27,791 nucleotides of DNA from Planctomycetaceae bacterium (GTDB lineage Bacteria > Planctomycetota > Planctomycetia > Planctomycetales > Planctomycetaceae), in contig JACCRE010000081.1 of the NCBI GenBank assembly GCA_013813775.1, forward strand, positions 1-27,791. The letters run 5' to 3'. Shown here piece after piece: positions 3,841 to 24,340 of the stretch (positions are counted from its first letter, which is position 1; every line of letters begins with the position of its first letter). Made by a program: the position numbers and the translations under genes. The notes under the pieces are model-generated. The model was not told where the DNA came from. It made no database searches and was given only the letters and a program-made list of their open reading frames with translations.

Positions 3841-3871
3841 CGGTATTTTCGGCGAACGAAAAATCTTTCGC

Positions 3872-4885
3872 TTACCGCCTCCGCCACCAAATGAAAATCA
3901 GGATGCCCAGCACCACGACGACGTTCGCGACGATCAACGACAAGCGGCCCCAAAGCCGCTCCGGCTCGGATTGGTCCGCCGCCGCGATGACAGGTTCGGA
4001 CCTCGGGACCGGCCGCTCGCCGGAGTAGGCCGGCTTCTCCGACAACCCTTCGCCGTCCCAATAACCAACGATGCGATTGATGCGATAGTCGACGATGGCC
4101 GTGTTCACCGGAAGATCCATCGACGCCAAGGTGAAGCGTTCCGCTGGAATCGCGAGGCCGGTCTCGAAACCGTCGACGGAGATCCGCCGGCGCATCACCT
4201 CGTTGGGCTCGGTTCTCACGATGTCCACGCCTTTCGGAAATGGGTTTGCATCGCCGCCGGACGCGAAATCCGACGCGATCTCAATTCGCCCGCCTGGCCA
4301 CTCGATCGTCCTTCGATGGACGCGAAAGGACGGCTCCTCAATCCAGAAATCGGAGGTCGCTTCACCGGCGAAGCATCGCACACGCCAAACGTCCACGTCG
4401 TCCACCTGCTCATTGCCGAGAACCTCCATCCGGTCGCTGGTCTCGTACCAGAGGCAATCCTTGACCGTGGTGTCGGCGGCCATCAAGTCCGAGAGTCCCA
4501 GAATTCTCGGATCGAACGCCAGGTCGCCCCTCACTCCGACCGCACGCTCCATATCGTAGATATGGACATCTTCGTGCTTTTTCCTACGGAATCCGTGCAG
4601 TTCGTCACCATCGACGATGACTATTTCAACTTCATCCGCCCCTTTGCCGAACTGCTCGAATCGCCGTCGGTCCATGTCAAGTTCGATGACGCAGTCGACG
4701 CTACGGGACGGCTCCGGGGCGAGATACTCGATCGTCAGCGTCGCCTGCAGGCCGTCATGACGTGTGCGGGAGGATTCGACGCCGCGCAGCAATGCCATCG
4801 CCGAAGGGGTGTCCGCTGCCGATAGATTCAACGACGGAACCCCAACGATCGCCACGCATCCGATCATTGCCAAAAGTGATTTCAT
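3872..4885 (-). CDS. Hypothetical exported protein (paralog A1) with N-terminal signal peptide and C-terminal motif-TM-WWRRR tail anchor
   Basis: Shows an N-terminal signal peptide (MKSLLAMIGCVAIVGVPSLNLSAA). The ~280-aa domain is shared with ORF 5574..6644 (HIYDMERAVGVRGDLAFDPRILGLSD, EEPSFRVHRR, FTLASMDLPVNTA, VDYRINRIVGYWDGEGLSEKPAYSGERPV). The C-terminus reads DQSEPERLWGRLSLIVANVVVVLGILIFIWWRRR*. Confidence 0.6.
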   Translation of the reverse strand: MKSLLAMIGCVAIVGVPSLNLSAADTPSAMALLRGVESSRTRHDGLQATLTIEYLAPEPSRSVDCVIELDMDRRRFEQFGKGADEVEIVIVDGDELHGFRRKKHEDVHIYDMERAVGVRGDLAFDPRILGLSDLMAADTTVKDCLWYETSDRMEVLGNEQVDDVDVWRVRCFAGEATSDFWIEEPSFRVHRRTIEWPGGRIEIASDFASGGDANPFPKGVDIVRTEPNEVMRRRISVDGFETGLAIPAERFTLASMDLPVNTAIVDYRINRIVGYWDGEGLSEKPAYSGERPVPRSEPVIAAADQSEPERLWGRLSLIVANVVVVLGILIFIWWRRR

Positions 4886-4990
4886 CGACTCTCTCGGATC
4901 CTGGTGACCTCCGGCGACGCACGAGCAACATCACCGTCGCGGCCCAAAGGCCTGAAGTTTACAACGACGGCGCATTTGCAGCCGAATACG

Positions 4991-5416
4991 TTAGCCTTCA
5001 TCCGTCGGGCACTGAGCATCTCCGGTAGTCGTTTTCGCGGCCTGCGACCAGCCGCTCCATCCGCCGGCGGTGTAGACCACACATTTCTGGGGCTGAACCG
5101 AGGAGTCCAATTTGCATGTCTGACTTCGTTGACAGTCCGCCTGCACTTCCTTCGTAGAACCTGACGATGCGCTCACCGCTCCGTCCGGAAAGCTGTTGGT
5201 TTCGTAAACGCTGACTCCGCACCCGAGGCCGGCATTGGGGTTCGCGTTACTGCAGGCTGAAACCGCATCGGCCGGAATCGTCGCGCACAACTTCGTGCTC
5301 GGATTAGGCGCCTGACACGCCGTTGTTGCCCAGACCGCAACTTGCCCTCCCAAGACGACGGCACCGAATGCCGCCAAACCTCGCACTGACAAGATTCGCC
5401 TTCGCAGCTTACTCAT
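4991..5416 (-). CDS. Small secreted cysteine-rich protein (paralog P2), 8 conserved Cys, C-terminal CPTDEG
   Basis: The start is taken at MSKLRRRILSV (an AAAAAGGAG RBS lies 6 nt upstream, inside the longer listed ORF). It has a signal peptide ending VAVWATTACQ, 8 Cys, an NSFPDG motif and ends CPTDEG. It is a paralog of 6797..7207. Confidence 0.6.
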   Translation of the reverse strand: MSKLRRRILSVRGLAAFGAVVLGGQVAVWATTACQAPNPSTKLCATIPADAVSACSNANPNAGLGCGVSVYETNSFPDGAVSASSGSTKEVQADCQRSQTCKLDSSVQPQKCVVYTAGGWSGWSQAAKTTTGDAQCPTDEG

Positions 5417-5573
5417 CTCTCGCTCCTTTTTAGCAGACGAGGGACCGGAACTCCGGAGTTTGAACAAAGCTCTCACGGCGATTGGTGAGAAGCCTCAACC
5501 TGATATTCAGCTTGTGGGTCGAGCGGCGCGATTCCGATACCGATCACTGAACTCCTAAGCGTCGACATGACAC

Positions 5574-6644
5574 TTACCGCCTCCGCCACCAGATGAAAAT
5601 CAGGATGCCCAGAACCACGACGACGTTCGCGACGATTAACAACCACCGGCGCCAATGCCGCTCCGGCTCGGATTGGTCCGACGCTGCGATGACAGGTTCG
5701 GACCTCGCGACCGGCCGCTCGCCGGAGTAGGCCGGCTTCTCCGACAACCCTTCGCCGTCCCAATAACCAACGATGCGATTGATGCGATAGTCGACAACGG
5801 CCGTGTTGACGGGAAGGTCCATTGAAGCCAAAGTGAAGCGTTCTGAAGGAACATCCACGTCCGTTTCCAACTCATTCACAGTATAGACCCACTCTAAGTC
5901 TGCTTGTTCAGCTGGCATTTTGAACTTCCGGCTAGCAATCACTCGGCGAGGGAATGGTAGCTTTGGATCCGACGGATCGAATTCGGACTCGATTACGGTA
6001 ACTTTAAATGGTGTCTCAGTAATCCTTCGATGAACCCGAAATGACGGTTCCTCTACCCAGTACTCTGAGCTCGTGTCACCCCTTATAGCTTTTACCCGCC
6101 AAAGATTGACCTCTCCCGCACCCTCACTGCCCATAACCGTCAGTTCGTCGTCTTCTTCATACCACAGGCAATCCTTAACAGTGACATCACATGGCATGAT
6201 GTCGGAAAGCCCCAAGATCCGCGGGTCAAATGCTAAATCGCCTCGAACCCCCACCGCACGTTCGACATCGTAAATATGTACGTCTTCATTAGGTTTCCTT
6301 CGGAATCCTAAGAACTCATTGCCATCTCGAATAACAATTTGTCCGGGCACCTCCCCCGCGAATACTTCGGCCCTCCTTTTGATGGGTCCATTTATCTCGA
6401 TGAGGCAGTTAACCGTGGTGATGGGGGGCGGTGAAACATAACGTATTTCCAGCGTCATGCGCGCAGATTCATATCGAGTACGCGATAACTCTGCACCTTG
6501 CAGCAGCGCAGCTGGAGACGGCTGTTCACATTGCGATCCTTGGCAATAAGAAAGATGTATTGCGCAACAGAGAAGAAACCGAAAGGATGCCTTTTGGACG
6601 CGTCGGTGCATCTGAAAAAATTGAGATAAGCCCATTATACACAA
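5574..6644 (-). CDS. Hypothetical exported protein (paralog A2) with C-terminal motif-TM-WWRRR tail anchor
   Basis: It is collinear with A1 at roughly 55% aa identity, and its last ~90 codons are near-identical at DNA level. The start may be at 6644 or at the internal MHRRVQKASFRFLLCCAIHL (6611). Most of the gene is about 50% GC against about 63% in the flanks. Confidence 0.6.
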   Translation of the reverse strand: MCIMGLSQFFQMHRRVQKASFRFLLCCAIHLSYCQGSQCEQPSPAALLQGAELSRTRYESARMTLEIRYVSPPPITTVNCLIEINGPIKRRAEVFAGEVPGQIVIRDGNEFLGFRRKPNEDVHIYDVERAVGVRGDLAFDPRILGLSDIMPCDVTVKDCLWYEEDDELTVMGSEGAGEVNLWRVKAIRGDTSSEYWVEEPSFRVHRRITETPFKVTVIESEFDPSDPKLPFPRRVIASRKFKMPAEQADLEWVYTVNELETDVDVPSERFTLASMDLPVNTAVVDYRINRIVGYWDGEGLSEKPAYSGERPVARSEPVIAASDQSEPERHWRRWLLIVANVVVVLGILIFIWWRRR

Positions 6645-6796
6645 ATCCCTTGTCTACCATATATACATACTTTGAATCCGCTGGTCATTAAAGACGGAGG
6701 CCGTATTGATGCTGATTTGGCCAGCGCCGAACGGCCTCCGTTCTGAAACCAAGCCATTTGATTTCACGCAGCTATTCAAAGTGGCTGCAGCACTTT

Positions 6797-7207
6797 CTAT
6801 CCTTCATCCGTCGGGCACGTATTGTCACCAACTACGGTTTTATCTCCGGATTGATAGCCGCCCCAAGTAGTGCTCGATACACACTTCCTGGTTTCATCAT
6901 TCCACACGCAATATTTCCTCCGCCAACAGTCGGCTGCCTCTTCCTTTGTTGTCCCTGAAGCGGATTCTGCGCCTCCGTCTGGAAACTGATTTCGCTCAAA
7001 AGCGTCGTATAACAAAGTGCAAGTTGACTCCGAGCCGCTACAGGTATATGTCGTTTGCGCACTGGTACAAAATTTCGTGTTTGGATTTGGCACCTGGCAA
7101 GCCGATGTCGCCCAAACGACGAGTTGGTTTCCTAAGACGAGCATGCTAGCGATGGCGCATGCCGCCAATGCCGGTGTGGACAGAAATCTTTGTTTCGCCT
7201 TACTCAT
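6797..7207 (-). CDS. Small secreted cysteine-rich protein (paralog P1), 8 conserved Cys, C-terminal CPTDEG
   Basis: The start is taken at MSKAKQRFLS (an AAAAAGGAG RBS precedes it). Its ATG overlaps the stop of the upstream DUF1573 gene (GATGAGTAA). It has a signal peptide ending LVVWATSACQ, 8 Cys, NQFPDGG and ends CPTDEG. Confidence 0.6.
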   Translation of the reverse strand: MSKAKQRFLSTPALAACAIASMLVLGNQLVVWATSACQVPNPNTKFCTSAQTTYTCSGSESTCTLLYDAFERNQFPDGGAESASGTTKEEAADCWRRKYCVWNDETRKCVSSTTWGGYQSGDKTVVGDNTCPTDEG

Positions 7208-8411
7208 CTGCGTCTCCTTTTTCCAGCAAACGGTGAACAGGAACTCTGAGGGTTCGTACAACGCTCTCGCCGCCATCGGCGAGAAACTCCAACTCGATTT
7301 CCAAATCGCCGTCGAGCGCTGTCTCGCGACGCGGTGCGATGAACACCTTCAGCCGATGCTCTGACGCCGATTGCCGATCGTCACGTTCTGTCCGCACACC
7401 GTCGTCCGCCGCCGTGCTGCGGACATCGCGGATTCGCGCGGGGCGGCTCGTCGTGACTTTGATCTCCCTCGAAACTTCGCCGACTTCGTCGGAGCCGACG
7501 ACGATCATCGCCGGCCTGGCTTCCGCCGGGGCCTTATATTTCGCGAGCACGGGCACGCTGGACTTCGGGACCCGCTCGCTGTCGCTCGACAGGATGATCG
7601 AGCCGCTGAGCGACTTGCTTTGCGTGAACCGGGACAGGTCCAGGTCGACCTTGATTTCGACATCGGAATCGTTCGGCCGCTTCGGCAGAATTTCCGCGGT
7701 GAGAAAGCTGCTTGAAGAAGTGGCTTCAGAGATTTCCACATCGGTCGCCGCCTCCGGCACGACGCGAAAGGTGCGGCTCACGCGCTGCACCGCCAGACCG
7801 TCGATCACACCAAAATTCACCTCGCTCGGCGAGACCCGATAGTCGGGGATGATGTCCGCCCGCACGCCTAACGTGAGCGAACCCCGCTGACCTGGAGCGG
7901 CGGAGCCGTCGCGTGCTTCGTGGTAGCTGACGGTGACGCGACCCGAGGCCGTCACTTGCGCGGTTCCCGTCGTGAAACGGACCGGCAGCGGGAAGCGGGC
8001 ACCGGCTGCGATTGTCATCGGGCCCAACTCATCGTCGCCGGCGACGACACAATGGCAACTCGTCGTCAGCCCGTCGATTTTGACCGGCGCGTCTCCCTGG
8101 TTGACCAGGGAGAAGGTATGAGCGAGCTCTTCTCCCTGACGCTGCTCTCCGAAATCGTGCACGTTCGAGTCGACAACGGCCAATCCGAAATGTTTCGCTT
8201 CGTGACTCGCTTCACCGTCGGTGCAGCCCGCGAGAAGCCCAATCGATGCGACAAGAGCGGCCGGAATTATCGAAACGAGACCGATACGGCGAACAGTCAA
8301 TTCAGCATGGCATCTTGCATCCGAAAAAGTCACAAGAGATCGTCGCCGAGACCCGTCAACGAAGCCTTTTCGGCCCTCGCAACAACGGCCATCAAGGACG
8401 GCGGTTTTCAT
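7200..8411 (-). CDS. DUF1573-domain lipoprotein
   Basis: Has a lipobox-like LLAGC after a hydrophobic stretch. The sequence HDFGEQRQGEELAHTFSLVNQGDAPVKIDGLTTSCHCVVAG matches the DUF1573 pattern (hDFG..G......F...N.G..PL.I......C.C). Its stop overlaps the start of P1. The true start may be internal to the listed ORF. Confidence 0.55.
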   Translation of the reverse strand: MKTAVLDGRCCEGRKGFVDGSRRRSLVTFSDARCHAELTVRRIGLVSIIPAALVASIGLLAGCTDGEASHEAKHFGLAVVDSNVHDFGEQRQGEELAHTFSLVNQGDAPVKIDGLTTSCHCVVAGDDELGPMTIAAGARFPLPVRFTTGTAQVTASGRVTVSYHEARDGSAAPGQRGSLTLGVRADIIPDYRVSPSEVNFGVIDGLAVQRVSRTFRVVPEAATDVEISEATSSSSFLTAEILPKRPNDSDVEIKVDLDLSRFTQSKSLSGSIILSSDSERVPKSSVPVLAKYKAPAEARPAMIVVGSDEVGEVSREIKVTTSRPARIRDVRSTAADDGVRTERDDRQSASEHRLKVFIAPRRETALDGDLEIELEFLADGGESVVRTLRVPVHRLLEKGDADE

Positions 8412-11217: not shown

Positions 11218-11517
11218 ATGGAGAAACAGACTCACGATCCGAAGCGGCGCGTACTGCGAGAGCTGCTTCGTGATCTTCGCCGGGAGCAGGGCCTGCGGCA
11301 GGCCGATGTCGCCGCACGGGTCGGAGAGCCGCAGTCCTTCGTCAGCAAGTACGAGACCGGCGAGCGGCGACTGGACGTCATCGCGCTTCGCGAAGTCTGT
11401 CACGTACTGGGAGTCAGTTTGGCCGAGTTCGCCGAGCGGCTCGAAGCGCGACTTGCCGCCAGCGGGGGTCGAGGAGGAAGTCGACGCCGGCGGGGGGCGC
11501 CTTCTGACCGGTCGTGA
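11218..11517 (+). CDS. XRE-family (Cro/CI-type) helix-turn-helix transcriptional regulator
   Basis: LRELLRDLRREQGLRQADVAARVGEPQSFVSKYETGERRLDVIALREVCHVLGVSLAEF is a canonical HTH_3/XRE motif (Q-S-x-hS-x-hE-x-G). It is followed by a Gly/Arg-rich tail. Confidence 0.8.
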   Translation: MEKQTHDPKRRVLRELLRDLRREQGLRQADVAARVGEPQSFVSKYETGERRLDVIALREVCHVLGVSLAEFAERLEARLAASGGRGGSRRRRGAPSDRS

Positions 11518-12523: not shown

Positions 12524-13177
12524 ATGTCGGAAATCATCGACCTCCTCTTCGCGATCCCGACGCTGCCGGGAACGATCCTGCTTGGCGTGTGCCTTGTGTA
12601 CTGGCTCCTGCTCATTGCGGGAGCGGTGAGTCTCGACCTGCTGCATATCGATCTCGACCTCGACACCGACGTCAATCCCGACGCCGCCGGCACCAGTTGG
12701 GGCATGACGGCCTTCAAGTTTCTGAATATCAACGACGTTCCCCTCATGATCTGGCTCTCGATCTTCGCCGCGGCGTACGTCGCGATCGCCGGGGCCGCCG
12801 TGAGCATCCGGCCTGTCGGAGACGACCTCGGCGCCATCGCCGCCGCGATCGCTTGTTCCAGTGCGCTGGCCCTGATTGCGACGAAGCTTCTCACGCAGCC
12901 GTTGCGAGGCAAGTTCGAGGTCGTCGAACCGAACGTCGCCGAGACGCTCGTCGGCCGGACGTGCGTGATTACGACCGTTGAAGTCTCCGAACGATTCGGT
13001 CAGGCCAGCGTCGAGTCGGAAGGCGCTCCACTGTTGCTCAACGTGCGAGCGCCTGCTGAAACGCTTTCGAAGCATGATGTCGCGGTGATCACCGGTTTCG
13101 ACCGCGACCGCAACGTCTTCTTTGTGGAACCCGTCGCCGCCGTCCCCTCCGAACCGCCTACGCGGGAAGCCGTCTAA
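12524..13177 (+). CDS. NfeD/YqiJ-like inner-membrane protein (flotillin partner) with C-terminal OB-fold
   Basis: The start is taken at MSEIIDLLFAIPTLPGTILLGVCLVYWLLLIAGA (the listed ORF has an unsupported 137-codon GC-rich leader). There are four or five TM helices, then NfeD-like beta/OB C-terminus GRTCVITTVEV...VAVITGFDRDRNVFFVEP. Its stop overlaps the flotillin ATG (TAATG). Confidence 0.65.
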   Translation: MSEIIDLLFAIPTLPGTILLGVCLVYWLLLIAGAVSLDLLHIDLDLDTDVNPDAAGTSWGMTAFKFLNINDVPLMIWLSIFAAAYVAIAGAAVSIRPVGDDLGAIAAAIACSSALALIATKLLTQPLRGKFEVVEPNVAETLVGRTCVITTVEVSERFGQASVESEGAPLLLNVRAPAETLSKHDVAVITGFDRDRNVFFVEPVAAVPSEPPTREAV

Positions 13178-15210
13178 TGTCGCTAACCTTGATTCCTGCC
13201 GCCACTTTGGAAGTCGTCGGCCTGGCCGTCGCCGCGGTCGTGGCCGCACTGTTCGTGCTGATCGCGGTCGGCTCGCTCTTTTCGAAGTTCTACCGCAAGG
13301 TCGGACCGGAAGAGGCGATCGTCATCAGCGGCAAGGGCGGCTTGCGAGCCGCGTCCGGCGAAGGCACCTGGGTCATCCCCGTGCTGCATCGCGCGGAGCA
13401 CATGGACCTGTCGGTCAAGCGAATCGAGATTCATCGCAAGGGCGAAAGCGGCCTGATCTGCAAAGACAACATTCGGGCCGACATCGAAGTCGCGTTCTTC
13501 GTGCGGGTCAATAACTCGAAGGAAGCGATCCTGCAGGTCGCCCAGAGCCTCGGCTGCAAACGCGCGAGCGATCGACTGGCCTTGATCGAGCTGTTCGACG
13601 CCAAATTTTCGGAGGCGCTCAAGACCGTCGGCAAGCACTTCGAGTTCGTCGAGTTGTTCGTCGAACGCGACAAGTTCAAGGAGCAAATTCTCAAGGTCAT
13701 CGGCACTGACCTGAACGGATACGTGCTCGATGACTGCGCGATCGATATTCTCGAACAAACGCCGGTCGAGAAGCTCAATCTCAATAACATTCTCGACGCC
13801 GAGGGCATCAAGAAAATCACCGAGCTGACGGCCCGCGAGCATATGCGGTCGAACGAGATCGCCCGCGAAAAAGAGAAGGTCATCAAGAAGCAGGACGTCG
13901 AAGCCGCTGAGGCGATCTATCAGCTCGAAAAGCAGCGGGTCGAGGCCCAGGAGAAGCAGAAACGGGAGATCGCCGCCATCACCTCTCGCGAAGAGGCCGA
14001 GGCCGCCAAAATTCGCGAAGAAGAGCGCCTGCGCGCCGAGTCGGCCCGCATCCGCACCGAAGAAGAGCTGCAAGTCGCCGAGCAGAACAAGGACCGCCAG
14101 ATCGTCGTCGCTCGCAAGAGCAAGGAACGCACCGAAGCGGTCGAGACCGAACGCGTCGAGAAAGATCGCTTGCTCGAAGTCACCGAACGCGAACGAGTCG
14201 TCGGACTCGCCTCGATCGCCAAAGAAAAAGAGATCGAAGCCGAGAAGCGCGACATCCAGGAGGTCATCCGCGAGCGGGTCACCGTCGAGCGCACGGTCGT
14301 CGAAGAACAGCAACGCATCAAAGACACCGAAGAGTTCGCGACGGCCGATCGTGTCAAGCGCGTGGCCGTGACGAAGGCCGAACAAGAGGCCGAACAACAG
14401 CTCGTGATGAAGGTCAAGGAGGCCGAAGCCTCGAAGCGAGCCGCGGAGCTTCACTCCGACCAGATCGTGATCGAGGCCGAGGCTCAGAAGAAGAGCGCCG
14501 AGCGCGAAATGGCGGCCACGAAGATGCACGCCGAAGGTAAGCAGGCCCAGCATGCCGCCGAAGGGCTCGCGGAAGCTCAGGTCATCTCCGCCAAGGCCGA
14601 CGCCCTCGAAAAACAAGGCACGGCTGAGGCTGAAGTGCTCAAGCTCAAGTTCGTCTCCGAGGCCGAAGGCATTCGCGAGAAGGCCGAGGCGATGAAGCTC
14701 TTCGACGGCGTCGGCAAAGAGCACGAAGAGTTCAAGCTGCGGCTCAATAAGGACAAAGACATCGAGATCGCCGCGATCGACGCCCAGCGCCAGATCGCCG
14801 ATGCCCAGAGCCGCATCGTCGGCGAGGCGCTCAAGAGCGCGAAGATCGACATCGTGGGCGGCGAAACCACCTTCTTCGACAAGATCGTCGACTCGATCAC
14901 CAGCGGCAAGCGCATCGACCGCATGGTCGAAGGCAGCCGCACGCTCACCGACGTCAAAGACACGTTTTTCAACGGCGACGGCGAGCATTTCCAGACGCAA
15001 CTCCGCCAGTTCGTCGGACGCTTCAACATGAGCTTCGACGACATCAAGGATCTGTCGGTCGCGGCGCTCGTGGGTCGAATGATTTCGATGGCCGACGACG
15101 ACAGCGAGCGGGGCCAACTCAAGCGGCTGCTCAACGCCGTCCGCGGCAGCGGGTCGGCCGATAAACGAGTGTCTTCGCTGGGACTCAATCGCGAGCCGGC
15201 GAAGAACTGA
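13177..15210 (+). CDS. Flotillin-family SPFH/band-7 protein (FloT/YqiK-like) with long EA-rich coiled coil
   Basis: Has an N-terminal TM anchor, then the SPFH core (EEAIVISGKGG...VIPVLHRAEHMDLSVKRIEIHRKGESGLICKDNIRADIEVAFFVRVN), then about 300 aa of Glu/Ala/Lys/Arg-rich heptad repeats typical of flotillins. The NfeD partner lies immediately upstream with 1-nt overlap. Confidence 0.85.
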   Translation: MSLTLIPAATLEVVGLAVAAVVAALFVLIAVGSLFSKFYRKVGPEEAIVISGKGGLRAASGEGTWVIPVLHRAEHMDLSVKRIEIHRKGESGLICKDNIRADIEVAFFVRVNNSKEAILQVAQSLGCKRASDRLALIELFDAKFSEALKTVGKHFEFVELFVERDKFKEQILKVIGTDLNGYVLDDCAIDILEQTPVEKLNLNNILDAEGIKKITELTAREHMRSNEIAREKEKVIKKQDVEAAEAIYQLEKQRVEAQEKQKREIAAITSREEAEAAKIREEERLRAESARIRTEEELQVAEQNKDRQIVVARKSKERTEAVETERVEKDRLLEVTERERVVGLASIAKEKEIEAEKRDIQEVIRERVTVERTVVEEQQRIKDTEEFATADRVKRVAVTKAEQEAEQQLVMKVKEAEASKRAAELHSDQIVIEAEAQKKSAEREMAATKMHAEGKQAQHAAEGLAEAQVISAKADALEKQGTAEAEVLKLKFVSEAEGIREKAEAMKLFDGVGKEHEEFKLRLNKDKDIEIAAIDAQRQIADAQSRIVGEALKSAKIDIVGGETTFFDKIVDSITSGKRIDRMVEGSRTLTDVKDTFFNGDGEHFQTQLRQFVGRFNMSFDDIKDLSVAALVGRMISMADDDSERGQLKRLLNAVRGSGSADKRVSSLGLNREPAKN

Positions 15211-15234
15211 GCCGCTGTATCAGAACTGCCGAGT

Positions 15235-15276
15235 TTAGCCGCGACCGAAGGAAGCGCTTCGTTCGGTCGCGGCTAA
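15235..15276 (+). terminator. Strong hairpin (15-bp perfect stem TTAGCCGCGACCGAA / TTCGGTCGCGGCTAA, 12-nt palindromic loop) between flotillin and giant ATPase gene
   Basis: Read directly. It lies 25 nt after the flotillin stop and 10 nt before the giant ORF start, and is followed by cctcttgtgtt (weakly U-rich). Could be a partial terminator/attenuator or an RNase processing site setting the stoichiometry of flotillin versus the giant protein. Confidence 0.5.
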
Positions 15277-15286
15277 GCGTCCTCTT

Positions 15287-18200
15287 GTGTTCCGAACCGC
15301 CATGTCCGACGCCGCTCCCGCCGAAACGCTCGACCGCGGCACGTATGAACTGCTTCGCGAGCGATTGCGGGGGCACGGCCGCGAGCTTGCCGAGCGGGTC
15401 GAGAAACTCAATGCCGCACGGAAGGCGACCTTCGGCGGTGTCGAACCTGAACTCGCCGCGACGGAACGCATTTCGACCGAGCACAACTGCGTGCCGCGCG
15501 ACATCGCGGCGGTCGGCGGAACGCTGCTGTTCGGATTCAACGTTCATTTCGGGCTGAAGGCCGAGCGATCTCCCGCCGACGTCTTCGCCGCATACAGCTT
15601 CTCCGAAAGTCGCTTCCATCCGCGGGCGCTCGACTTGCTCGACGACGCGGCGTTTCAGAAGGACTTCAAGGACGTCTATCGGTTCTACAAAGACGCCTCT
15701 TTCGAAAAGTTCGTCAGCCGCGGTCCGCTGCTCTACATGCAGCTTCGCACCGGCCCGGGCGAAGGCGATATTAAGACCTTCAAGTGGGCGGCCGTCGGCG
15801 ACTTGTTGAAGTACGTCGACAACCGCAGCGATCACGAACTGCGGCTTCCGCCCCAGCATGAATTCGATTGGCGGCGACCTCGCCGGGAAGACCACGTCTA
15901 CGGGAAGCACCCGCACGTCAATGTCGCCGACAAAACCTTCGTCGAAACGATCGGCGGCGATCTGACGATCAAGATCGAGAACAACACCGACACCGGCCAG
16001 GGCATCTATGCCGAGCCGGTCGAGAACGCCGATCAGACGCTCGACGACGCGGAGATCCGCTACGCCACTTTCAGTTCGCTCGTTCTTCTGAAGATCAAAC
16101 CCTATCAGGAGGCAGGTGATCGCCACATCGTCTACTGCGAGAAAACCCGCCGGGCCATTCGGCTCGACGGCATCTCCAACTGTTGCCGTTTGCTGCCCGC
16201 CGACCAGGGCATCATCTATCCCGCTGGTTATCTGCTGCACACCGGCGATGGCAAATCCTTCGACGGCGTACCGGAGCACGCCAACTTTGAGCAGCGGATC
16301 GACGCGCCGAACGGCGAAGATTTCCTATATATCTTCTACGACCGCACCGCGGGGCTGTACGTTCTCATCCGCTACAATGTGATCGCGCAAGCGGCCGATC
16401 CGCCGCTGCTGTGCCACGGGTACACGTTGTTTTCCGGGGGCGAGCTCGTTTGCTTCCGCGCGCAGCCAGAATCGCAGCGGCATCATGCGATTCAAATCTG
16501 GCGAACGCCTTTCACCGCCGAAGCATTGCTGCCGGAGGCCGACTCGAGCTCCGACCTGTTCAAGATCGGCAATCGCGAAATCGTTCACGGCCTGTCGGAA
16601 TGCCACGAAATCCTCACGCTGCTCGATAAGGAAGACACGTTCGGCGATCTGTACGCCGAGGTCGCTCAACGGGCCGGCGATCTGCTCGATAGCTACTACT
16701 GGATTCGCAGCCCGGCGACGTTCCGGCTCGACGAATCGCTTGAGCAAGTTCGGTCGGCGGCGTCGGCGGCGATCGACGAGTACGTCAAAGTCGCGCGGGC
16801 TCGCGAAAACGCGAAACAGCAGACGGAAGCCCTGCAGGGCCGCGTCGGCGAGGCGGTCGCGACGGCAAATCGACGGGCCTATGAATCTGTCGCCGACTTC
16901 ACGGCCTCGCTCGCGGAGCTTCGCACGCTGCGCGGCGAAGCGATCGGCCTGCGTGAGGTGCGCTACGTCGATCCGACGGTGATCGACGCTCTCGAACAAA
17001 CGCTGGCCGCGGAGTCGGAGCGGATCGCCGGTCGTTGCATCGCCTTTCTCGACCGGCCGGACGCGCTTGCTCCCTTTGCGACGACGCTTCAAGAGGAACG
17101 GGGCAAGCTCGACGGCATCAAGACGGCTCGTGATGCCAAGGAGTCGGACGAGCGGGTCGCCAAGGTCGCCGCCGATCTCGAATTGCTGATCGAAACGGTC
17201 TCGAACCTGCCGATCGAAGACGCGACGCAACGCACCCGAGTCGTCGACGCGGTGTCGGCCGTGTTCGCCACCGTCAACACGTTGCGAGCCGAGATCCGCA
17301 ATCGTCGGAAAGCTCTCGCCACGACCGAAGGCGCAGCCGAGTTCGGATCGCAGCTCAAACTGATGTCGCAAGCCGTCGTCAACGCACTCGATCGGTGTGA
17401 GACGCCGGAAAAGTGCGACGAACAATTCTCCCGCCTCTTGTTGCAAGTCGAGGAGTTGGAAGGCCGCTTCGCGGAGTTCGACGAGTTCGCGGTCACGCTC
17501 GCCGAGAAGCGGGAAGAAATCGCCTCGGCCTTTGAAACGCGGAAGACGTCGCTGCTGGAGGCCCGCGCCAAGCGATCGGGCTCGCTGGCGGCTGCGGCGG
17601 AGCGGCTGCTCGGCGGCATCGGCTCGCGGGCGAAGACGCTGGATTCGGCCGACGCGATTCAGGGCTATTTCGCCGGCGATCTGACCGTCGCCAAGGTGCG
17701 CGACCTCGCCGGTCAACTATCCGGTCTCGGCGACGCCGTCCGTGCCGACGGATTGCTCACGCGGCTGAAATCGCTTCGCGACGATGCGATCCGCCAGCTC
17801 AAGGATCGACAGGACCTCTTCGCCGAAGGTCCGGGAGTCATCAATCTCGGCGGCTATCGGTTCGGCGTGAACACGCAGCCGATCGATCTCACGACGGTCG
17901 TTCGCAACGGCCAACCGCAACTCCACCTGACCGGCACGCGGTTCTACGAGCCGGTCGATGACGCCGAGTTGCTGGCCGCTCGCGAGTGCTGGGATCAGGA
18001 ATACGTTTCGGAAACTGCCGAAGTCTATCGCGGAGAGTTTCTGACACACTCCTTGTTCGTCGAAGCCGCCGAGGCTGGCATGCTCAAGAAGGTGGCAAAG
18101 TTCGCCGATGCCGAACTGGCGATCTGGGTCGCCGAACGCATGGCTCCGCGCTACTCCGAAGGCTACATGAAAGGAGTCCACGACCGCGACGCGGCGGCCA

Positions 18201-20665
18201 TTCTGAAGGCCCTTATTAAGGTTCACGAAGCATTGGGGCCGCTGCGCGCTGCTCCGCAGGCGCGGGCTCTCGCACGCTTGTTCTGGCGGCATGGGTGCCC
18301 GGAGCGAACGAAGACACGTCTGGATCAGCGTCTGAGCGCGCTTCGCGAGCTTTCCGCCGTCTGGCCCGACCGAATCGACGCGTCGCCGTTGCGAGACGAT
18401 CTGGCCGCGGCGCTCGGCGCCTTCGCGGGCGCGACGACAGCTCTCTCCGAACACGATGCGGTCCACGCAGCGGCTTTCCTCGTCGATCGACTGCTCGTGG
18501 GCGACGAATTGCCCGTCAGCCAGCGCTCCGCGGAGATCGCGAAGGCGTTCCGCGGCGACCTCGTCGTTCGCAACGCCGAAATGCGCTTCCGCCGGGCGAC
18601 CGAGACCGCCGGCGATGACGTCGCCGTTCGCTTCGAACTTGCGCGAAGCTGGCTCGCCGCCTTCGTCGATGTGAAGGACGTCGAGGCGGCGTCACTGATC
18701 GATGAAGCGGCCGTTCTGCTGCTCTCGAACGACGAGCCGGGCGAAACGATCTCCGCGAAGGCATGCCGCGAGCTGAAGGGGCTGCTCGGCGATCATCCGG
18801 TGATCGACAAGGGGCGTTATCGGCTCGACTACTACCGCTTTTTCGAACGGCTGCGGCATCACATCGAGTCGGTGGTGCCGCGCTTCCGGCAGTACGTCGA
18901 TCGCAAGCACGCCGTCATCACCAAAGCGCGTGATGAACTGCGTCTCGAAGAACTCAAGCCGCGCGTGATGGCGTCGTTCGTGCGAAACCGCCTCATCGAT
19001 ACGGCATATCTGCCGCTCATCGGAGCGAATCTCGCCAAGCAGATCGGCGTCGCCGGCGAAGAGACGCGCGCCGATCGCCAGGGAATGCTGCTGCTGATCT
19101 CGCCGCCGGGCTACGGCAAAACGACCCTCATGGAGTACGTCGCCGACCGTCTCGGGCTCGTGTTCCTCAAGATCAACGGACCGGCGATCGGGCACGCGGT
19201 CACGTCGCTCGACCCGTCGGCCGCCCCCGACCTCGCCGCCCGCGAGGAATTGAAGAAGCTCGGCCTCGCGTTCGAGATGGGCGACAACGTGATGATCTAC
19301 GTCGATGACATCCAGCACTGTCATCCCGAGTTCCTGCAGAAGTTTATTTCGCTATGCGATGCCCAGCGCAAGGTCGAGGGCGTGTGGCGCGGCGAGGCCA
19401 AGACCTATGACCTGCGCGGACGGAAGGTGTCCGTCGTGATGGCGGGGAACCCCTACACGGAGAGCGGCGATAAGTTCCAGATCCCGGACATGCTCGCGAA
19501 CCGGGCCGACGTCTATAACCTCGGCGACGTGAGCGGCCGGCACCGCGAAGCCTTCGAGCTGAGCTTCATCGAAAACTCGCTGACGTCGAACGGCACTCTG
19601 TCGCGTCTCGCGGCACATCCGCACGATGTGATCGGCGTCGCCGGTCTGGCGGCGGATAAAGATCCATCGTCGGTCGATCTCGAGGGCAACTATGCGGCCG
19701 ACGAGCTTTCCGCGATGGTCGCAGTGATGCGGAAGCTGCTGCGGGTGCGCGACGTGATCCTGTCGGTGAACGCCGAGTACATTCGCTCCGCCGCGCAGGC
19801 CGATGAGTTTCGCACCGAGCCGCCGTTCAAGCTTCAAGGCTCGTATCGCAACATGAACCGCATCGCCGAGCGCGTGCTGCCGGTGATGAACGACGCGGAA
19901 CTCGACGAACTGATCCGCACGAGCTACCGCAACGACGCACAAACGCTGACCACCGGAGCCGAAGCGAATCTGTTGAAGTTTCGCGAGCTCGTCGGCTGGC
20001 TGTCGGACGAGGACCGACAACGGTGGGAAGTAATTAAGCAAACGTATCGCCGGAACCAGAAGCTGCGCGGCCTCGACGAGGGGGACCGCTTCGGTCAGGC
20101 GATCGCACAGCTCGCGTTGTTCGCCGACGGCCTGTCGGATCTTCGCGGCACTCTGTCCGATGGCATCGAACGCTTGGCGAACCGAACGGAGACGGTCCCG
20201 ACAATCGATCCCGCGCAGACGGCGATCGCCGACCGACTCGAAGAGCTGCGGGGCGCTTTCGGAGCGATGGTCAAGGCCGTCGAGATAAATCGTTTGCAGC
20301 CGGCTCTGGCAGCCTCAAAACCAAATGAGCCCTCGAAGCTGACGATCGATCCCGAGATCGTCCATCAGTTCGCGGAACTCTTGCGGGCAAATGCACCGTC
20401 ACACGTGCGGATCGTGGACGGAGACGGACAGACCTCCGCCGGTCCTCCGGCGGCAATCACGGTCGTCAACAAGATCCCGCCGGCGCTGCTGAACCTGTTG
20501 CGTGATCAGTTCCGCCTCATGGAGGCGTGGCTGCGTCCCGTGCTGTCGGCGTCGGAGCGCCAGTCCGACGAAATGAGCGATCTCGCGGCGCAGATCAAAA
20601 CCTGCCTCGCCGACTACGAACGGCTCGTGGGGAGGATTGAGGCGACGCGCGGGGAGGGTCGCTAG
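15287..20665 (+). CDS. Giant (about 1790 aa) protein with C-proximal AAA+ ATPase domain (AAA_5/MoxR/McrB-like); remainder without recognisable motifs
   Basis: It is a single uninterrupted ORF. The start is GTG at 15287 or ATG at 15302 (MSDAAPAETL). Residues about 1265-1420 read GMLLLISPPGYGKTT (Walker A) ... NVMIYVDDIQH (Walker B-like) ... VVMAGNPYTESGDKFQIPDMLANRADVYNL (sensor-1 Asn and Arg as in AAA_5). The N-terminal ~1250 aa and C-terminal ~370 aa are non-repetitive, mixed alpha/beta, with no signal peptide or TM. Confidence 0.7.
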   Translation: MFRTAMSDAAPAETLDRGTYELLRERLRGHGRELAERVEKLNAARKATFGGVEPELAATERISTEHNCVPRDIAAVGGTLLFGFNVHFGLKAERSPADVFAAYSFSESRFHPRALDLLDDAAFQKDFKDVYRFYKDASFEKFVSRGPLLYMQLRTGPGEGDIKTFKWAAVGDLLKYVDNRSDHELRLPPQHEFDWRRPRREDHVYGKHPHVNVADKTFVETIGGDLTIKIENNTDTGQGIYAEPVENADQTLDDAEIRYATFSSLVLLKIKPYQEAGDRHIVYCEKTRRAIRLDGISNCCRLLPADQGIIYPAGYLLHTGDGKSFDGVPEHANFEQRIDAPNGEDFLYIFYDRTAGLYVLIRYNVIAQAADPPLLCHGYTLFSGGELVCFRAQPESQRHHAIQIWRTPFTAEALLPEADSSSDLFKIGNREIVHGLSECHEILTLLDKEDTFGDLYAEVAQRAGDLLDSYYWIRSPATFRLDESLEQVRSAASAAIDEYVKVARARENAKQQTEALQGRVGEAVATANRRAYESVADFTASLAELRTLRGEAIGLREVRYVDPTVIDALEQTLAAESERIAGRCIAFLDRPDALAPFATTLQEERGKLDGIKTARDAKESDERVAKVAADLELLIETVSNLPIEDATQRTRVVDAVSAVFATVNTLRAEIRNRRKALATTEGAAEFGSQLKLMSQAVVNALDRCETPEKCDEQFSRLLLQVEELEGRFAEFDEFAVTLAEKREEIASAFETRKTSLLEARAKRSGSLAAAAERLLGGIGSRAKTLDSADAIQGYFAGDLTVAKVRDLAGQLSGLGDAVRADGLLTRLKSLRDDAIRQLKDRQDLFAEGPGVINLGGYRFGVNTQPIDLTTVVRNGQPQLHLTGTRFYEPVDDAELLAARECWDQEYVSETAEVYRGEFLTHSLFVEAAEAGMLKKVAKFADAELAIWVAERMAPRYSEGYMKGVHDRDAAAILKALIKVHEALGPLRAAPQARALARLFWRHGCPERTKTRLDQRLSALRELSAVWPDRIDASPLRDDLAAALGAFAGATTALSEHDAVHAAAFLVDRLLVGDELPVSQRSAEIAKAFRGDLVVRNAEMRFRRATETAGDDVAVRFELARSWLAAFVDVKDVEAASLIDEAAVLLLSNDEPGETISAKACRELKGLLGDHPVIDKGRYRLDYYRFFERLRHHIESVVPRFRQYVDRKHAVITKARDELRLEELKPRVMASFVRNRLIDTAYLPLIGANLAKQIGVAGEETRADRQGMLLLISPPGYGKTTLMEYVADRLGLVFLKINGPAIGHAVTSLDPSAAPDLAAREELKKLGLAFEMGDNVMIYVDDIQHCHPEFLQKFISLCDAQRKVEGVWRGEAKTYDLRGRKVSVVMAGNPYTESGDKFQIPDMLANRADVYNLGDVSGRHREAFELSFIENSLTSNGTLSRLAAHPHDVIGVAGLAADKDPSSVDLEGNYAADELSAMVAVMRKLLRVRDVILSVNAEYIRSAAQADEFRTEPPFKLQGSYRNMNRIAERVLPVMNDAELDELIRTSYRNDAQTLTTGAEANLLKFRELVGWLSDEDRQRWEVIKQTYRRNQKLRGLDEGDRFGQAIAQLALFADGLSDLRGTLSDGIERLANRTETVPTIDPAQTAIADRLEELRGAFGAMVKAVEINRLQPALAASKPNEPSKLTIDPEIVHQFAELLRANAPSHVRIVDGDGQTSAGPPAAITVVNKIPPALLNLLRDQFRLMEAWLRPVLSASERQSDEMSDLAAQIKTCLADYERLVGRIEATRGEGR

Positions 20666-20818: not shown

Positions 20819-23800
20819 TTATTGCGGAGCCGGTGCGAACGAAGACGCCGGTTTGCGATCGAGGAGCTTCCTCAGTGGATCGCCCACCTGCTTCTCGATC
20901 TCGCGATTCAGAATGCCATTGACCGCTCCCGTCGCCGCGCGACGCGCCAGGTCTTGCAGGGCTCGCGGATCGGGGGCCGGGCGTGAGAGCGTTCCGCGGA
21001 TCGGCACCCGTAGCGACTGACCCCCTAGCGCCGTTGCGACGCGTTCATCCTTGAACCATTGCGCGTCGAGCGGAATCTCAGCGATGAGATCGATCGATTC
21101 ATCGAAGCCGACGCTGCCGGATGTCGAGACGATCGGTCCGTCGGCGTCGCCGAGTCGGACGGCGAAGCGGTCGTGGTGCACGCGGCCGCCTGCGATGCGA
21201 AGACGAACCGCTTGCTGTGGAGCGACGAGCCGCAGGTCGGAGCCGCTCGTCGCATCGCGACCGGCGATCCGTCGGACTTGCCCGATCACGTCGATGAGCG
21301 ATCGGGCGAATGGACCTGGAGTCGCATCGAGTCCCGCGATGAGCAGCGTCGCTTCGGCGTGCGTTTCCGTCGGTGCCGCAAGCGGCGCGGTGCAGGAATC
21401 GACTTCGAGTGACGCGGTGCCTTGCACGGTGGCGGCATCGGCGAGCGTCGGCGTCGCGTATCGCAGCCACCGGCTGCACATCTCGGCCGTGACCGTGATC
21501 GAGTCGGCGATTCTGCCCGGCGCAAGCCGTAACGGAAATCGGCCGTTCAGTTCTGCAGAGGCTGAACCCCGCATTCGGCCTTTTCCGACCGGCCAGTCAA
21601 ACCGCTCGAACTCGAGCGAACCTCGCTCCAGTCGGGCTGAAAGCTCCCCGCTCCCGACGGCCAAGCCATAAACGTCGAGCGAATCCCAGCCGAAACCTGC
21701 CCGAGCCGTTAGACCCGGATCGACGATTCCGGCACCAAACAACGGGCCGCGGAGAGCAAACGGTTTCGCTCCCCGCCCTTTCGCGATCACGTCCGCCGGC
21801 CACGCGTGAATTCGCGGTGCGAGCAGGGGCAGATCATAGCTCAGACCCGCCGTCAGATCGGCGCTCCCACTCGAACTGACGTGATCCAGGCGTCCTTTGG
21901 CATCCACCCCGATCCCACTTGCGACGATCCGCATGGCCGTGACATCCAATGCGTCGCCCAGGCGGTGATAACGGGCCGTCAGTGACACTTCGGCGCGGTC
22001 ATCCGACCAGAGCGGGCGCCACTCGACTCGACCGCCCGCCAATTCCAGAGGCTTCGTCAGCACGGGACGCTCGAACTCGAACTTCGCATCGACGAGCGTG
22101 GCCGTCGCGTCCGACTTCAGATCCGCCGTGCCCTGCACGACACCAGAAACCCAGACGGGAGGCCGCGAGGGGAGTACGTATCGGGCGAGCCGGCCGATCC
22201 CGCCACGAATCTCGAAGTGCCCCGATACCGCCTTGTCGGTCGTCAGCGGCCAGTGGATCCCGGTCCCATCGATCATCGCCGACTCGCTCGTGAACTTCGC
22301 GGTCGGAACGGTCAGCAGTCCCGACGAGAGATTCCAGGAGGCGTTGCCCGTCAGCCGAGCGACAGGCTCGTCGAACATCCGGTTCGCGAAGCCCAGGCGA
22401 AAGTTCTTCGACTCCGCATCGAGGCTGCTCACTCTTAATGACGATCCTGCGAAAGCGATCTCAGCCTTGGCGTCGATCTGGCCGGCGATCGTCCACGAGG
22501 TCGCCTCGGGAAGAAGTCTCCACGCGCGGGCACGATTGAACCAACGCGTCGAGTCCCCCTTGGCCGTCACGGAGAGCTTCCAGTTCGCCCCCGTGGCGAG
22601 CCGGACCGGTTCCATCAGAACGGCACGGACTTCATCTTTTTCGACGCTTTGCAGGGAGATCGTTCCCGAACGGATCTCCGTCACGCCGCTTTGAGTTCCC
22701 TCGCATTCGGCGGAGGCATGGAAGCTCAGTTCCCGTTCCGTCCAACGGCGTCCCGCTAGGCTCAGCATCAGATCGCGGACGGCCCCGGTGGCATCGACAT
22801 CGAAAACCTTGTCCGCAGCGCCACGTTTGATCGTAATTCGACCCTCGGCACGACCTGCGAGGGCATCAGCGGGCAACTCGACGAACCGCGAAAGATTCTC
22901 TCGCAGCCGATCGAGATCCGTGTCAAACGTCAGTTCGGCCGCTGTCGCCGACCCTGCGCCTCGTAGCGTCAGAAACTCTGATTCGGCATGAGCGCTTTCG
23001 ACGGTCAGGCCCGACTCCGTTTGCACCGCCACGAGGTCGAATGCGAACGGCTGACGCCAGACGATCGGATTCTCGGCCGAACCGGCGACGATGTCCGAGG
23101 CTCGCAGCCGAATGGTCCCTCGACGGCGGCCTTCCTCGCCGGACGATTTTACGTCGATCGCCAGCGTGCCCGACTGCACCGGCTGCCGGAGCCGCAGGGA
23201 CTCGGGAAGCGCAGCGGCAATGCTTTTCAGGTCCGCCGAGCAGTTCAACGAGAACTCGTTTGCGAGCAGCGCCTCTACCTGCGGAAGCAGACCATTTTCC
23301 GATAACAGCGTTCCCAGATCGAAGCTGCCGTTCACGGTCGCTGTGCCGACATCACTGGAAAGCTCGAGGTCATCAAGCGTGAGAAGAGAGCCATCGGCGG
23401 ATGCGCGTCCCGCAAGCGACGCCTCTTCGAGCAACAAGGGATGCGCGTCGCTGACGCCGACTCGCTCGAATCGCATTCGTCGTCCCGCGACTCGACCGTC
23501 GACATTCCAGGAGGAGCCGTCGGCCGGCGCAGTGACTAGAACGTCTGCCGTTGCGGTTCCAGTGACGCGTGCCGCGACCTCGAAACGATCGAGCCACGAC
23601 TGGAGCGCCCCGAGCGGCAGATCTTTGGCGACGACGGAGACGTGTGGTTCCGCGTCGCGCCCGTCTCGCCTCACCGATCGCACGGTGAAGGTTCCGGGGT
23701 GCTCGCCGTCGGTCAGCGTCCCGCCAAGCTCGATGTGATCGGGAAGCGAATCGCCGGCGTTGCGGCTGATCGTCGCCGAGACGTCCTTCAGCGAACCGGC

Positions 23801-24340
23801 GGCGCGTTCACCATCGAGCCGCGTCCAAGCAACCGCTGCGTCGACAACTCTAACCTCGAAACCTGATCCGCCTCCTTCGCCATCCAAGAGCGGCGCCAGC
23901 ATCTCTTCGACGTTGCTCCCGCCCGTTTTGAGTCGGACCGACAACTCGGGACGAGTCAGCGTGAGAACACCGAAGCCCTTCGACCGTCCCGCCAGGAGTG
24001 CCAGCAAGTGTTGCGACGTGCGAAACTCCTCGACGCGCAGGAGGTCGTGGCCATCGACGTCGCTCAGTTCGACATTTCTGAGCACCACGGGCGAAAGCCA
24101 GCCCAGGGATGCATGCCCGATCTCGGCCTCGCCGGCATACGCGGGAAGAACGGCATGCACGAATCCATGCCGCAAACCCGACCGCGCCACGATGGCCGGA
24201 GCGAACCACACGACCACGAGCACGGCGAGCAACGCCACGGCAATCACGCGGCCGCTTCGGCCGTTCGGCGGCACCTGCCGAGCGGCGGCAGGCTCGGGAG
24301 CCTCCTCCGGCGCATGAAGAGCGAGCGTCGCTTGTGACAC
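20819..24340 (-). CDS. AsmA/TamB-like envelope protein (N-terminal TM anchor, long beta-rich periplasmic domain)
   Basis: The N-terminus VIAVALLAVLVVVWFAPAIV is a TM anchor. It is followed by GWLSPVVLRNVELSDVDGHDLLRVEEF...LTLTRPELSVRL, which resembles the AsmA N-terminal region. The remaining >1000 aa are beta-strand-rich and low in Cys, with an AsmA-like C-terminus (DESIDLIAEIPLD...LRVPIRGTLSRP). Confidence 0.5.
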   Translation of the reverse strand: MSQATLALHAPEEAPEPAAARQVPPNGRSGRVIAVALLAVLVVVWFAPAIVARSGLRHGFVHAVLPAYAGEAEIGHASLGWLSPVVLRNVELSDVDGHDLLRVEEFRTSQHLLALLAGRSKGFGVLTLTRPELSVRLKTGGSNVEEMLAPLLDGEGGGSGFEVRVVDAAVAWTRLDGERAAGSLKDVSATISRNAGDSLPDHIELGGTLTDGEHPGTFTVRSVRRDGRDAEPHVSVVAKDLPLGALQSWLDRFEVAARVTGTATADVLVTAPADGSSWNVDGRVAGRRMRFERVGVSDAHPLLLEEASLAGRASADGSLLTLDDLELSSDVGTATVNGSFDLGTLLSENGLLPQVEALLANEFSLNCSADLKSIAAALPESLRLRQPVQSGTLAIDVKSSGEEGRRRGTIRLRASDIVAGSAENPIVWRQPFAFDLVAVQTESGLTVESAHAESEFLTLRGAGSATAAELTFDTDLDRLRENLSRFVELPADALAGRAEGRITIKRGAADKVFDVDATGAVRDLMLSLAGRRWTERELSFHASAECEGTQSGVTEIRSGTISLQSVEKDEVRAVLMEPVRLATGANWKLSVTAKGDSTRWFNRARAWRLLPEATSWTIAGQIDAKAEIAFAGSSLRVSSLDAESKNFRLGFANRMFDEPVARLTGNASWNLSSGLLTVPTAKFTSESAMIDGTGIHWPLTTDKAVSGHFEIRGGIGRLARYVLPSRPPVWVSGVVQGTADLKSDATATLVDAKFEFERPVLTKPLELAGGRVEWRPLWSDDRAEVSLTARYHRLGDALDVTAMRIVASGIGVDAKGRLDHVSSSGSADLTAGLSYDLPLLAPRIHAWPADVIAKGRGAKPFALRGPLFGAGIVDPGLTARAGFGWDSLDVYGLAVGSGELSARLERGSLEFERFDWPVGKGRMRGSASAELNGRFPLRLAPGRIADSITVTAEMCSRWLRYATPTLADAATVQGTASLEVDSCTAPLAAPTETHAEATLLIAGLDATPGPFARSLIDVIGQVRRIAGRDATSGSDLRLVAPQQAVRLRIAGGRVHHDRFAVRLGDADGPIVSTSGSVGFDESIDLIAEIPLDAQWFKDERVATALGGQSLRVPIRGTLSRPAPDPRALQDLARRAATGAVNGILNREIEKQVGDPLRKLLDRKPASSFAPAPQ

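Follow-up and report, generated by a model that had tools for sequence, protein, structure and literature searches.

The stretch of DNA analyzed here (hereafter the window) comprises 27,791 nucleotides (nt) of contig JACCRE010000081.1 from a Planctomycetaceae bacterium (assembly GCA_013813775.1), with a G+C content of approximately 62%. On its plus strand it carries three consecutive genes, which encode a short NfeD-like membrane protein of the YqiJ/YuaF type (12524–13177), a flotillin of the SPFH/Band 7 class (13177–15210) and a giant soluble AAA+ ATPase (15302–20665). The first open reading frame (ORF) is open from 12113, and the ATG at 12524 is the point at which the alignments of its homologues begin; the resulting 217-residue protein contains three hydrophobic segments, taken as three transmembrane (TM) segments, and also has a loop with the acidic sequence DLDLD and a soluble domain at its C terminus. 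It matches the Pfam family YqiJ_N above the cutoff (E = 5e-6). When the Protein Data Bank (PDB) was searched with a profile of 15 YqiJ-like homologues, the sole match was YuaF from Bacillus subtilis (2k14), at a weak E value of 0.21; a match to PsaL that was returned by the sequence search was rejected as spurious. The NfeD family itself (PF01957) is not matched by the window protein and is matched by one of the 15 homologues (E = 0.0049). The gene is joined to the next by the sequence TAATG at 13175–13179, in which the TAA stop codon (13175–13177) and the ATG of the flotillin gene (13177–13179) have one base in common. The initial annotation, made from the DNA letters and their translations, had proposed an NfeD/YqiJ-like and flotillin pair with 1-nt translational coupling at this position: the overlap, together with the YqiJ_N match and the Band_7 match described below, bears this out, and the coordinates it gave were all confirmed.

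The flotillin (677 residues) has a single TM segment at its N terminus, followed by the SPFH domain, a long coiled coil rich in Glu, Lys and Ala and a conserved C-terminal region. Scanned at full length against Pfam it matched nothing, even at E ≤ 1, probably because of the composition of the coiled coil; when residues 1–234 were scanned alone, Band_7 was matched over residues 41–183 with an E value of 3e-12. The NCBIfam model FloT matches residues 22–321 (7e-8) with a score of 32 bits, to be set against an equivalog cutoff of 700, and the Pfam 'Flot' C-terminal model was undetected in the protein. A PDB search with the single sequence gave no match, and one with a profile gave only QmcA, at 0.007. 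An identical (100%) protein at NCBI bears the name 'flotillin family protein'. The DNA that encodes the coiled-coil part of the protein shows a very strong AT skew (+0.40 at 14001–15000).

The third gene encodes a protein that appears in the databases as 'DNA repair ATPase' or 'MoxR-like ATPase', and two start codons are available for it: a GTG at 15287, which gives 1792 residues and begins 76 nt past the flotillin stop codon, and an ATG at 15302, which gives 1787 residues and a spacer of 91 nt. The 1792-residue ORF and 76-nt gap of the initial annotation are accurate for the GTG, but the ATG is the more likely true start, because homologues align from that methionine and because a second contig, JALYEL010000861.1, carries an identical flotillin together with a 1787-residue gene call for the ATPase. 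No TM segments were found in the protein, which is predicted to be a soluble NTPase encoded beside the genes for a membrane scaffold. Three regions are matched in Pfam: DUF3686 at residues 28–466 (1e-168), DUF7902 at residues 587–670 (9e-24) and AAA_5/AAA at residues 1263–1386. The AAA_5-type domain had been recognized from the outset, but it had been taken as the only recognizable part of the protein, behind some 1250 residues of unannotatable sequence; that description does not hold, as the two DUF families cover part of the N-terminal region and its fold can be predicted.

To describe this region, residues 1–1000 were modeled with AlphaFold2 (mean predicted local distance difference test score of 79). 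The model contains an N-terminal helix, approximately 27 strands at residues 50–401, long helices at residues 418–839 and a small beta domain at residues 846–884. The strands form a beta-propeller (residues ~45–405, 15434–16516) that lies within DUF3686 and is preceded by the helix at residues 12–44; its Foldseek matches in the PDB, at probabilities of approximately 1.0, were all propellers (CyRPA, prolyl oligopeptidase, Elp1 and the WD40 protein Ski8). A Foldseek comparison had been suggested by the initial annotation, and its outcome was this propeller and no DNA-binding, nuclease or helicase domain. Behind the propeller stands an array of helical bundles and coiled coils (residues ~418–840, 16553–17821), which holds DUF7902 (17060–17311), and then the small conserved beta domain (residues ~845–885, 17834–17956), for which the strands are modeled with modest confidence and the motif is G..F.VN...D...V....HLTGT; in the alignment described below, G850, F854, V856, N857, H875, G878 and T879 are invariant. 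A helical linker domain (residues ~910–1210, 18029–18931), drawn from the AlphaFold2 helices, shows the weakest conservation within the core, down to 0.33–0.43 over residues 1001–1200.

The MoxR-like AAA+ module follows at residues ~1220–1440 (18959–19621). It contains a Walker A motif, GYGK1273TT, and a Walker B motif that ends in D1335-D1336, and is therefore DD and not the usual DE; a putative sensor-1 residue (N1383) and a putative Arg finger (R1401) were assigned by eye. The closest folds to the module are NorQ and CbbQ, and a sequence search of the PDB with the whole protein returned nothing beyond the Walker A regions of VAT, p97 and Rpt3. Next comes a conserved C-terminal helical region (residues 1441–1600, 19622–20101), made up of the AAA+ lid and an extension with the invariant motif RTEPPFKLQGSYRNM. 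The remaining residues (1601–1787, 20102–20662) form a lineage-specific helical tail, with gap fractions of 0.35–0.79 in the alignment, and tblastn matches from Bacteroidota, Verrucomicrobiota and Clostridia mostly stop near residue 1620.

The ATPase belongs to a large family, with more than 3600 homologues. A full HMMER search of 1.84 billion cluster representatives with residues 1–1000 gave matches at E ≤ 1e-30 to 406 clusters (50% identity). Those that are full-length, of approximately 1600–1900 residues, are collinear, and the architecture is fixed over approximately 1600 residues. Conservation was measured on 74 aligned full-length sequences that represent at least seven phyla; this alignment is essentially gapless across residues 1–1600, and in it 255 residues are at least 97% conserved, among them Walker A, Walker B, N1383 and R1401. 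Identity across phyla is 42–51%. Among the matches listed, the best for the window ATPase has 71% identity, though the flotillin has a 100% identical entry (P0121); the word-based candidate step of the protein search probably missed the identical entry for the ATPase.

The association between the ATPase and the flotillin was evaluated in a genome scan that covered 80 loci with ATPase homologues, from Planctomycetota, Bacteroidota, Verrucomicrobiota, Desulfobacterota, Clostridia, Kiritimatiellota and Omnitrophota. Of these, 73 were informative, with at least 2.5 kb upstream of the ATPase gene; the other seven are too short upstream to judge. In 70 of the 73 informative loci, spread over the seven phyla, tblastn and ORF-level BLAST placed a flotillin gene immediately upstream of the ATPase gene and on the same strand. 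Most flotillins from other phyla are 49–66% identical to that of the window, and two are 37–43% identical. BLAST detects a YqiJ-like homologue upstream of the flotillin gene in 50 loci; in nine more the position is taken by a divergent equivalent of 237 residues, which shares the acidic DxDxD loop. The flotillin–ATPase spacers are often 11–130 nt long, and of the four Clostridia loci in which the ATPase gene is complete, two have the ORFs overlapping by 11 nt and two have them 11–12 nt apart. Pairwise distances between the flotillins correlate with those between the ATPases (rho = 0.46, a value that none of 500 permutations reached), which we count in favor of the two genes having been jointly inherited. 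Plasmids and secondary replicons, from Pseudomonas, Streptomyces, Deinococcus, Proteus and Vibrio among others, also carry homologues of the ATPase; in the two records inspected, Pseudomonas fluorescens pQBR103 and a Streptomyces plasmid, the order is a small protein, an SPFH/flotillin protein and then a 'DNA repair ATPase', and the module proteins of pQBR103 are homologous to those of the window. On this comparative evidence the flotillin–ATPase adjacency is far beyond chance, and the three genes are to be taken as a single functional unit. The three-gene module that the initial annotation proposed thus gains support from flotillin–ATPase synteny across phyla, and the observation that it named as fatal to the idea, homologues of the giant protein never lying beside flotillin genes, is the opposite of what the gene-neighborhood check returned.

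Several features of individual loci were recorded in the course of the scan. The closest genome relative (L048, CAWJNW010000013.1; 84% identity) has its flotillin and ATPase genes each fragmented in the ORF calls, breaks that may be assembly indel errors rather than the marks of pseudogenes. Small nuclease-like genes occupy the flotillin–ATPase gap in some Verrucomicrobiota and Bacteroidota, as PD-(D/E)XK_3 in five loci and DUF559 in four (for example at 8485–8859 in L040 and 9521–9943 in L038), and look like selfish insertions into the spacer. A Uma2 gene lies upstream of the ATPase gene in L057 (5921–6508). In L027, a Desulfobacteraceae metagenome-assembled genome, a STAND NTPase (AAA_16/NACHT) and a TPR protein (4333–6978) are encoded upstream of the ATPase instead of a flotillin.

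Beyond the flotillin, the recurring neighbors of the module lead to PspA. In 16–18 Bacteroidota loci, genes for a 131-residue CesT_Tir_1 protein (1.6e-56) and a PspA_IM30 protein (2e-41) are added to the operon on its upstream side, and a regulator with XRE-family helix-turn-helix (HTH) and S24 peptidase parts is transcribed divergently. On pQBR103 (L081, NC_009444.1, 85521–104326) the module closes an operon of the PspA/polyamine type, in the order PspA, rhomboid, DUF2491, DUF350, DUF1190, glutathionylspermidine synthase, YqiJ-like protein, SPFH protein and ATPase. The Bacteroidota extension and the pQBR103 array together place the module in the phage-shock/ESCRT-III neighborhood of membrane-stress genes. 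An operon of this kind has already been published: Ravi et al. (mSystems 2024, PMC11237479; preprint 2020) described a CesT/Tir-PspA dyad, a YqiJ/YuaF three-TM protein, a band-7/flotillin protein and a beta-propeller–coiled-coil–AAA+ protein, noted that 'related abbreviated operons' are more widely distributed, and predicted a role in sub-membrane dynamics or as a chaperone, in a description that is computational only. Their Table S3 entry for Dokdonia donghaensis (ANH61663.1) has the same gene order as that recovered here (PMC11237479), and the ATPases of Bacteroidota operons with the published architecture are 43–48% identical to that of the window. The initial annotation's view of the system as undescribed is therefore superseded. 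The window shares with the published operon the three-TM YqiJ/YuaF-type protein, the flotillin with its TM segment and Band_7 domain, and the AAA+ protein with propeller and coiled coils, whereas the CesT/Tir-PspA dyad, the S24 regulator and the phospholipase D gene were not found among its scanned ORFs; judged by its gene content, it matches the abbreviated, PspA-less form of that operon. The Planctomycetota ATPase differs further in its additional tail of approximately 190 residues. As a separate point, the two classes of PspA operon in Ravi et al. come together on pQBR103, a megaplasmid of P. fluorescens SBW25, a host that is genetically tractable.

Taken together, the locus probably encodes a membrane-maintenance module, in which the soluble MoxR-like ATPase would remodel flotillin assemblies, PspA assemblies or both under membrane stress. 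This reading draws on the gene order and its conservation, on the domain architecture, on the conserved nucleotide-binding and hydrolysis motifs and on the linkage to PspA in other lineages; the physical docking, the substrate, the direction of remodeling and the triggering stress are what we infer. The YqiJ/YuaF-like three-TM protein and the flotillin would be co-translated, as the 1-nt overlap suggests, and would build a scaffold or cage of the SPFH type on the inner membrane, at its cytoplasmic side. The ATPase would dock there by way of the beta-propeller at its N terminus and the long array of helices, a localization supported by its lack of TM segments and by the membrane nature of both partners. 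MoxR ATPases of the NorQ and CbbQ family are hexameric remodelers of protein complexes, and ATP hydrolysis could here assemble, disassemble or remodel the flotillin oligomer, client membrane proteins, or recruited PspA/ESCRT-III polymers, such that the ATPase would serve as an energy-consuming turnover factor of the membrane-stress response. For the pairing of SPFH cages with AAA+ machines there is established precedent, for example in HflK/C–FtsH (PMC13086221). A narrower form of the proposal, which we advance tentatively and as possible rather than probable, is that the giant ATPase would be a dedicated disassembly or turnover machine for flotillin cages, for docked PspA/ESCRT-III polymers or for both, with the propeller reading the cytoplasmic face of the flotillin or of the YqiJ-like protein and the helical array transmitting force.

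The 91-nt spacer between the flotillin and ATPase genes contains a hairpin (15235–15276, plus strand), the arms of which (15235–15249 and 15262–15276) are perfect 15-nt inverted repeats; in the predicted fold the stem comprises approximately 17 + 3 base pairs. The region folds with −43 kcal/mol (z = −3.7), and none of 200 shuffled sequences was equally stable, so the hairpin that had been noted at this position is real on both counts. It was rejected as an intrinsic terminator, with no T-run after it and no call from a terminator scan, and as a repeat of the repetitive extragenic palindromic type, since its exact matches in the window are its own two arms only. Stable hairpins were also seen in many, though not all, of the flotillin–ATPase spacers of other loci, and short spacers lack them, so it was not retained as a conserved feature. 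That it acts as an attenuator or as a site of mRNA processing is our inference. It is plausible that the hairpin sets the stoichiometry of scaffold to ATPase, and it may reduce expression of the ATPase relative to the scaffold.

Comparison with characterized systems helps to define what is shared and what is particular. The working analogy is with HflK/C–FtsH and with prohibitin and the m-AAA protease, in which, as here, an SPFH scaffold is coupled to an AAA+ ATPase. However, FtsH is a membrane-anchored, classical AAA+ protease, whereas the window ATPase has no TM segment, has a MoxR-like fold and is approximately 1100 residues longer, and no M41 or other peptidase domain was found in it with Pfam or NCBIfam. 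MoxR proteins such as NorQ, CbbQ and RavA have approximately 250–500 residues and usually a partner with a VWA/MIDAS domain; in contrast, the window ATPase has 1787 residues, a DD Walker B motif and, in front of the AAA+ module, a propeller and helical domains that span approximately 800 residues. The two genes upstream match yqiJ-yqiK of Escherichia coli and yuaF-floT of B. subtilis in order, in coupling and in the architectures of their products (three TM segments plus a soluble domain, and TM segment plus SPFH domain plus coiled coil), but differ from such two-gene units in that the flotillin scores far under the FloT equivalog cutoff and is nearly always followed by the giant ATPase. Finally, the extended operons link a polymer of the ESCRT-III superfamily, PspA, to an AAA+ ATPase and so resemble ESCRT-III and Vps4, although the window ATPase lacks an MIT domain, carries an AAA+ module of another type than classical Vps4 and has the flotillin as its primary genomic partner.

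Several observations weigh against a membrane-maintenance module. In three loci (L027, L036 and L057) the ATPase has no flotillin beside it; what lies upstream there is unrelated, with no other SPFH gene in view. Neither PspA nor CesT_Tir was matched among the window ORFs scanned against Pfam, which were the larger ones, and the other genes of the window are not conserved with the module, the flanks being common only to the closest relative, L048. MoxR ATPases normally have a VWA partner, and no VWA domain was found in the window or among the conserved neighbors. The DD in place of DE in Walker B could make hydrolysis slow or regulatory. Finally, no experiment on any member of the operon was found in the searchable literature.

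Among the alternatives, the one that retains most is that PspA/ESCRT-III polymers are the substrate of the ATPase, which would be a functional Vps4 analogue, with the flotillin and YqiJ-like proteins serving as a platform only and PspA's gene lying at another site of the genome. The presence of CesT/Tir-PspA in the same operon in the Bacteroidota loci and the position of PspA at the head of the pQBR103 array both point this way, as does a 2025 review, according to which a Vps4-like ATPase 'appears absent in bacteria', the control of PspA polymerization is an open question, and Band-7 partners of PspA are listed with undetermined roles (PMC7619361). However, the ATPase is tied to the flotillin (70/73 loci) far more than to PspA (approximately 18 of 80 loci), it has neither an MIT domain nor a Vps4-like AAA+ module, and a PspA gene was not found in the window; we consider this alternative rather unlikely.

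The initial annotation had leaned toward defense, comparing the giant protein with BrxC/PglY and McrB, and the corresponding alternative is an anti-phage or conflict system, in which the flotillin module would sense perturbation of the membrane by phage and the giant NTPase would act as the effector or switch. A large P-loop NTPase with a long non-catalytic N terminus would suit such a role, as would the copies on megaplasmids, the small nuclease-like genes (PD-(D/E)XK_3, DUF559 and Uma2) in or beside the operon in some loci and the STAND NTPase gene upstream in one. Nevertheless, a PADLOC 2.0 scan of the three operon proteins and of a 1173-residue neighbor (described below) gave only a 30-residue P-loop match to IetA (E = 0.0023), and tblastn found no homologue in phage records. 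The loci have no conserved nuclease, methyltransferase, protease or other effector in common, their flanking genes differ and no defense genes are conserved with the operon, while the conservation of the ATPase (42–51% identity across phyla, 255 near-invariant residues) is unusually high for defense genes. The comparison with defense ATPases is thus not upheld, and a defense function appears improbable.

Less probable again, and very improbable in itself, is that the protein is a DNA repair ATPase, as its database name has it, and that the adjacent flotillin reflects membrane-tethered DNA processing. Pfam describes DUF3686 as 'ATPase involved in DNA repair', the NCBI name agrees, and the divergent XRE-HTH and S24 regulator of the Bacteroidota versions is LexA/CI-like. 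Yet no paper that backs the name was found, nor any on DUF3686 or PF12458; DNA-binding, nuclease and helicase domains were undetected by Pfam, by NCBIfam and by fold comparison; and the sole conserved partners are membrane proteins and PspA. We regard 'DNA repair ATPase' as a database mislabel. Coincidental adjacency of an ordinary NfeD-flotillin pair and an unrelated large gene, for which the strong hairpin and 91-nt spacer of the window might be cited, has next to no likelihood and is refuted by the synteny: 70 of 73 loci, drawn from seven phyla, share this order and strand, and in some of them the ORFs overlap or nearly abut.

The remainder of the window was also surveyed. A 99-residue XRE-family HTH protein (HTH_3, 2.6e-14) is encoded at 11218–11517 on the plus strand, approximately 1 kb upstream of the operon. 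Regulators beside the operon elsewhere include the XRE-HTH + S24 regulator of Bacteroidota and phage CII-like proteins in some Verrucomicrobiota and Kiritimatiellota loci; that the window's HTH protein regulates the operon is only a possibility, and its gene is not conserved in the other loci. Downstream, an ORF of 1173 residues on the minus strand (20819–24340) is convergent with the ATPase gene; neither Pfam nor PADLOC gave a match for it, and its conservation is limited to L048. At the left end of the contig lies a DDE transposase gene (DDE_Tnp_1, 3.2e-9; 134–1198, plus strand), where the local G+C content reaches 67.5%, the maximum of the window. Between the transposase and the HTH gene, a run of genes on the minus strand (1282–8411) includes one for an 852-residue protein with PMT_2 glycosyltransferase and BPL_N/ThuA-like parts and one for a DUF1573 protein that matches a HYDIN/VesB-like Ig domain; the G+C content is 49% at 6001–7000.

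The value of the window lies in providing one more clean example, from Planctomycetota, of the minimal three-gene form of the system, not in the discovery of that system. Flotillins and PspA build large membrane scaffolds in bacteria, and an ATPase locked to the flotillin gene is an obvious candidate for a Vps4-like role in their assembly and disassembly. Under the narrower proposal, of a dedicated disassembly machine, bacterial membrane-repair scaffolds would have in the giant ATPase their missing counterpart of Vps4, one that consumes energy.

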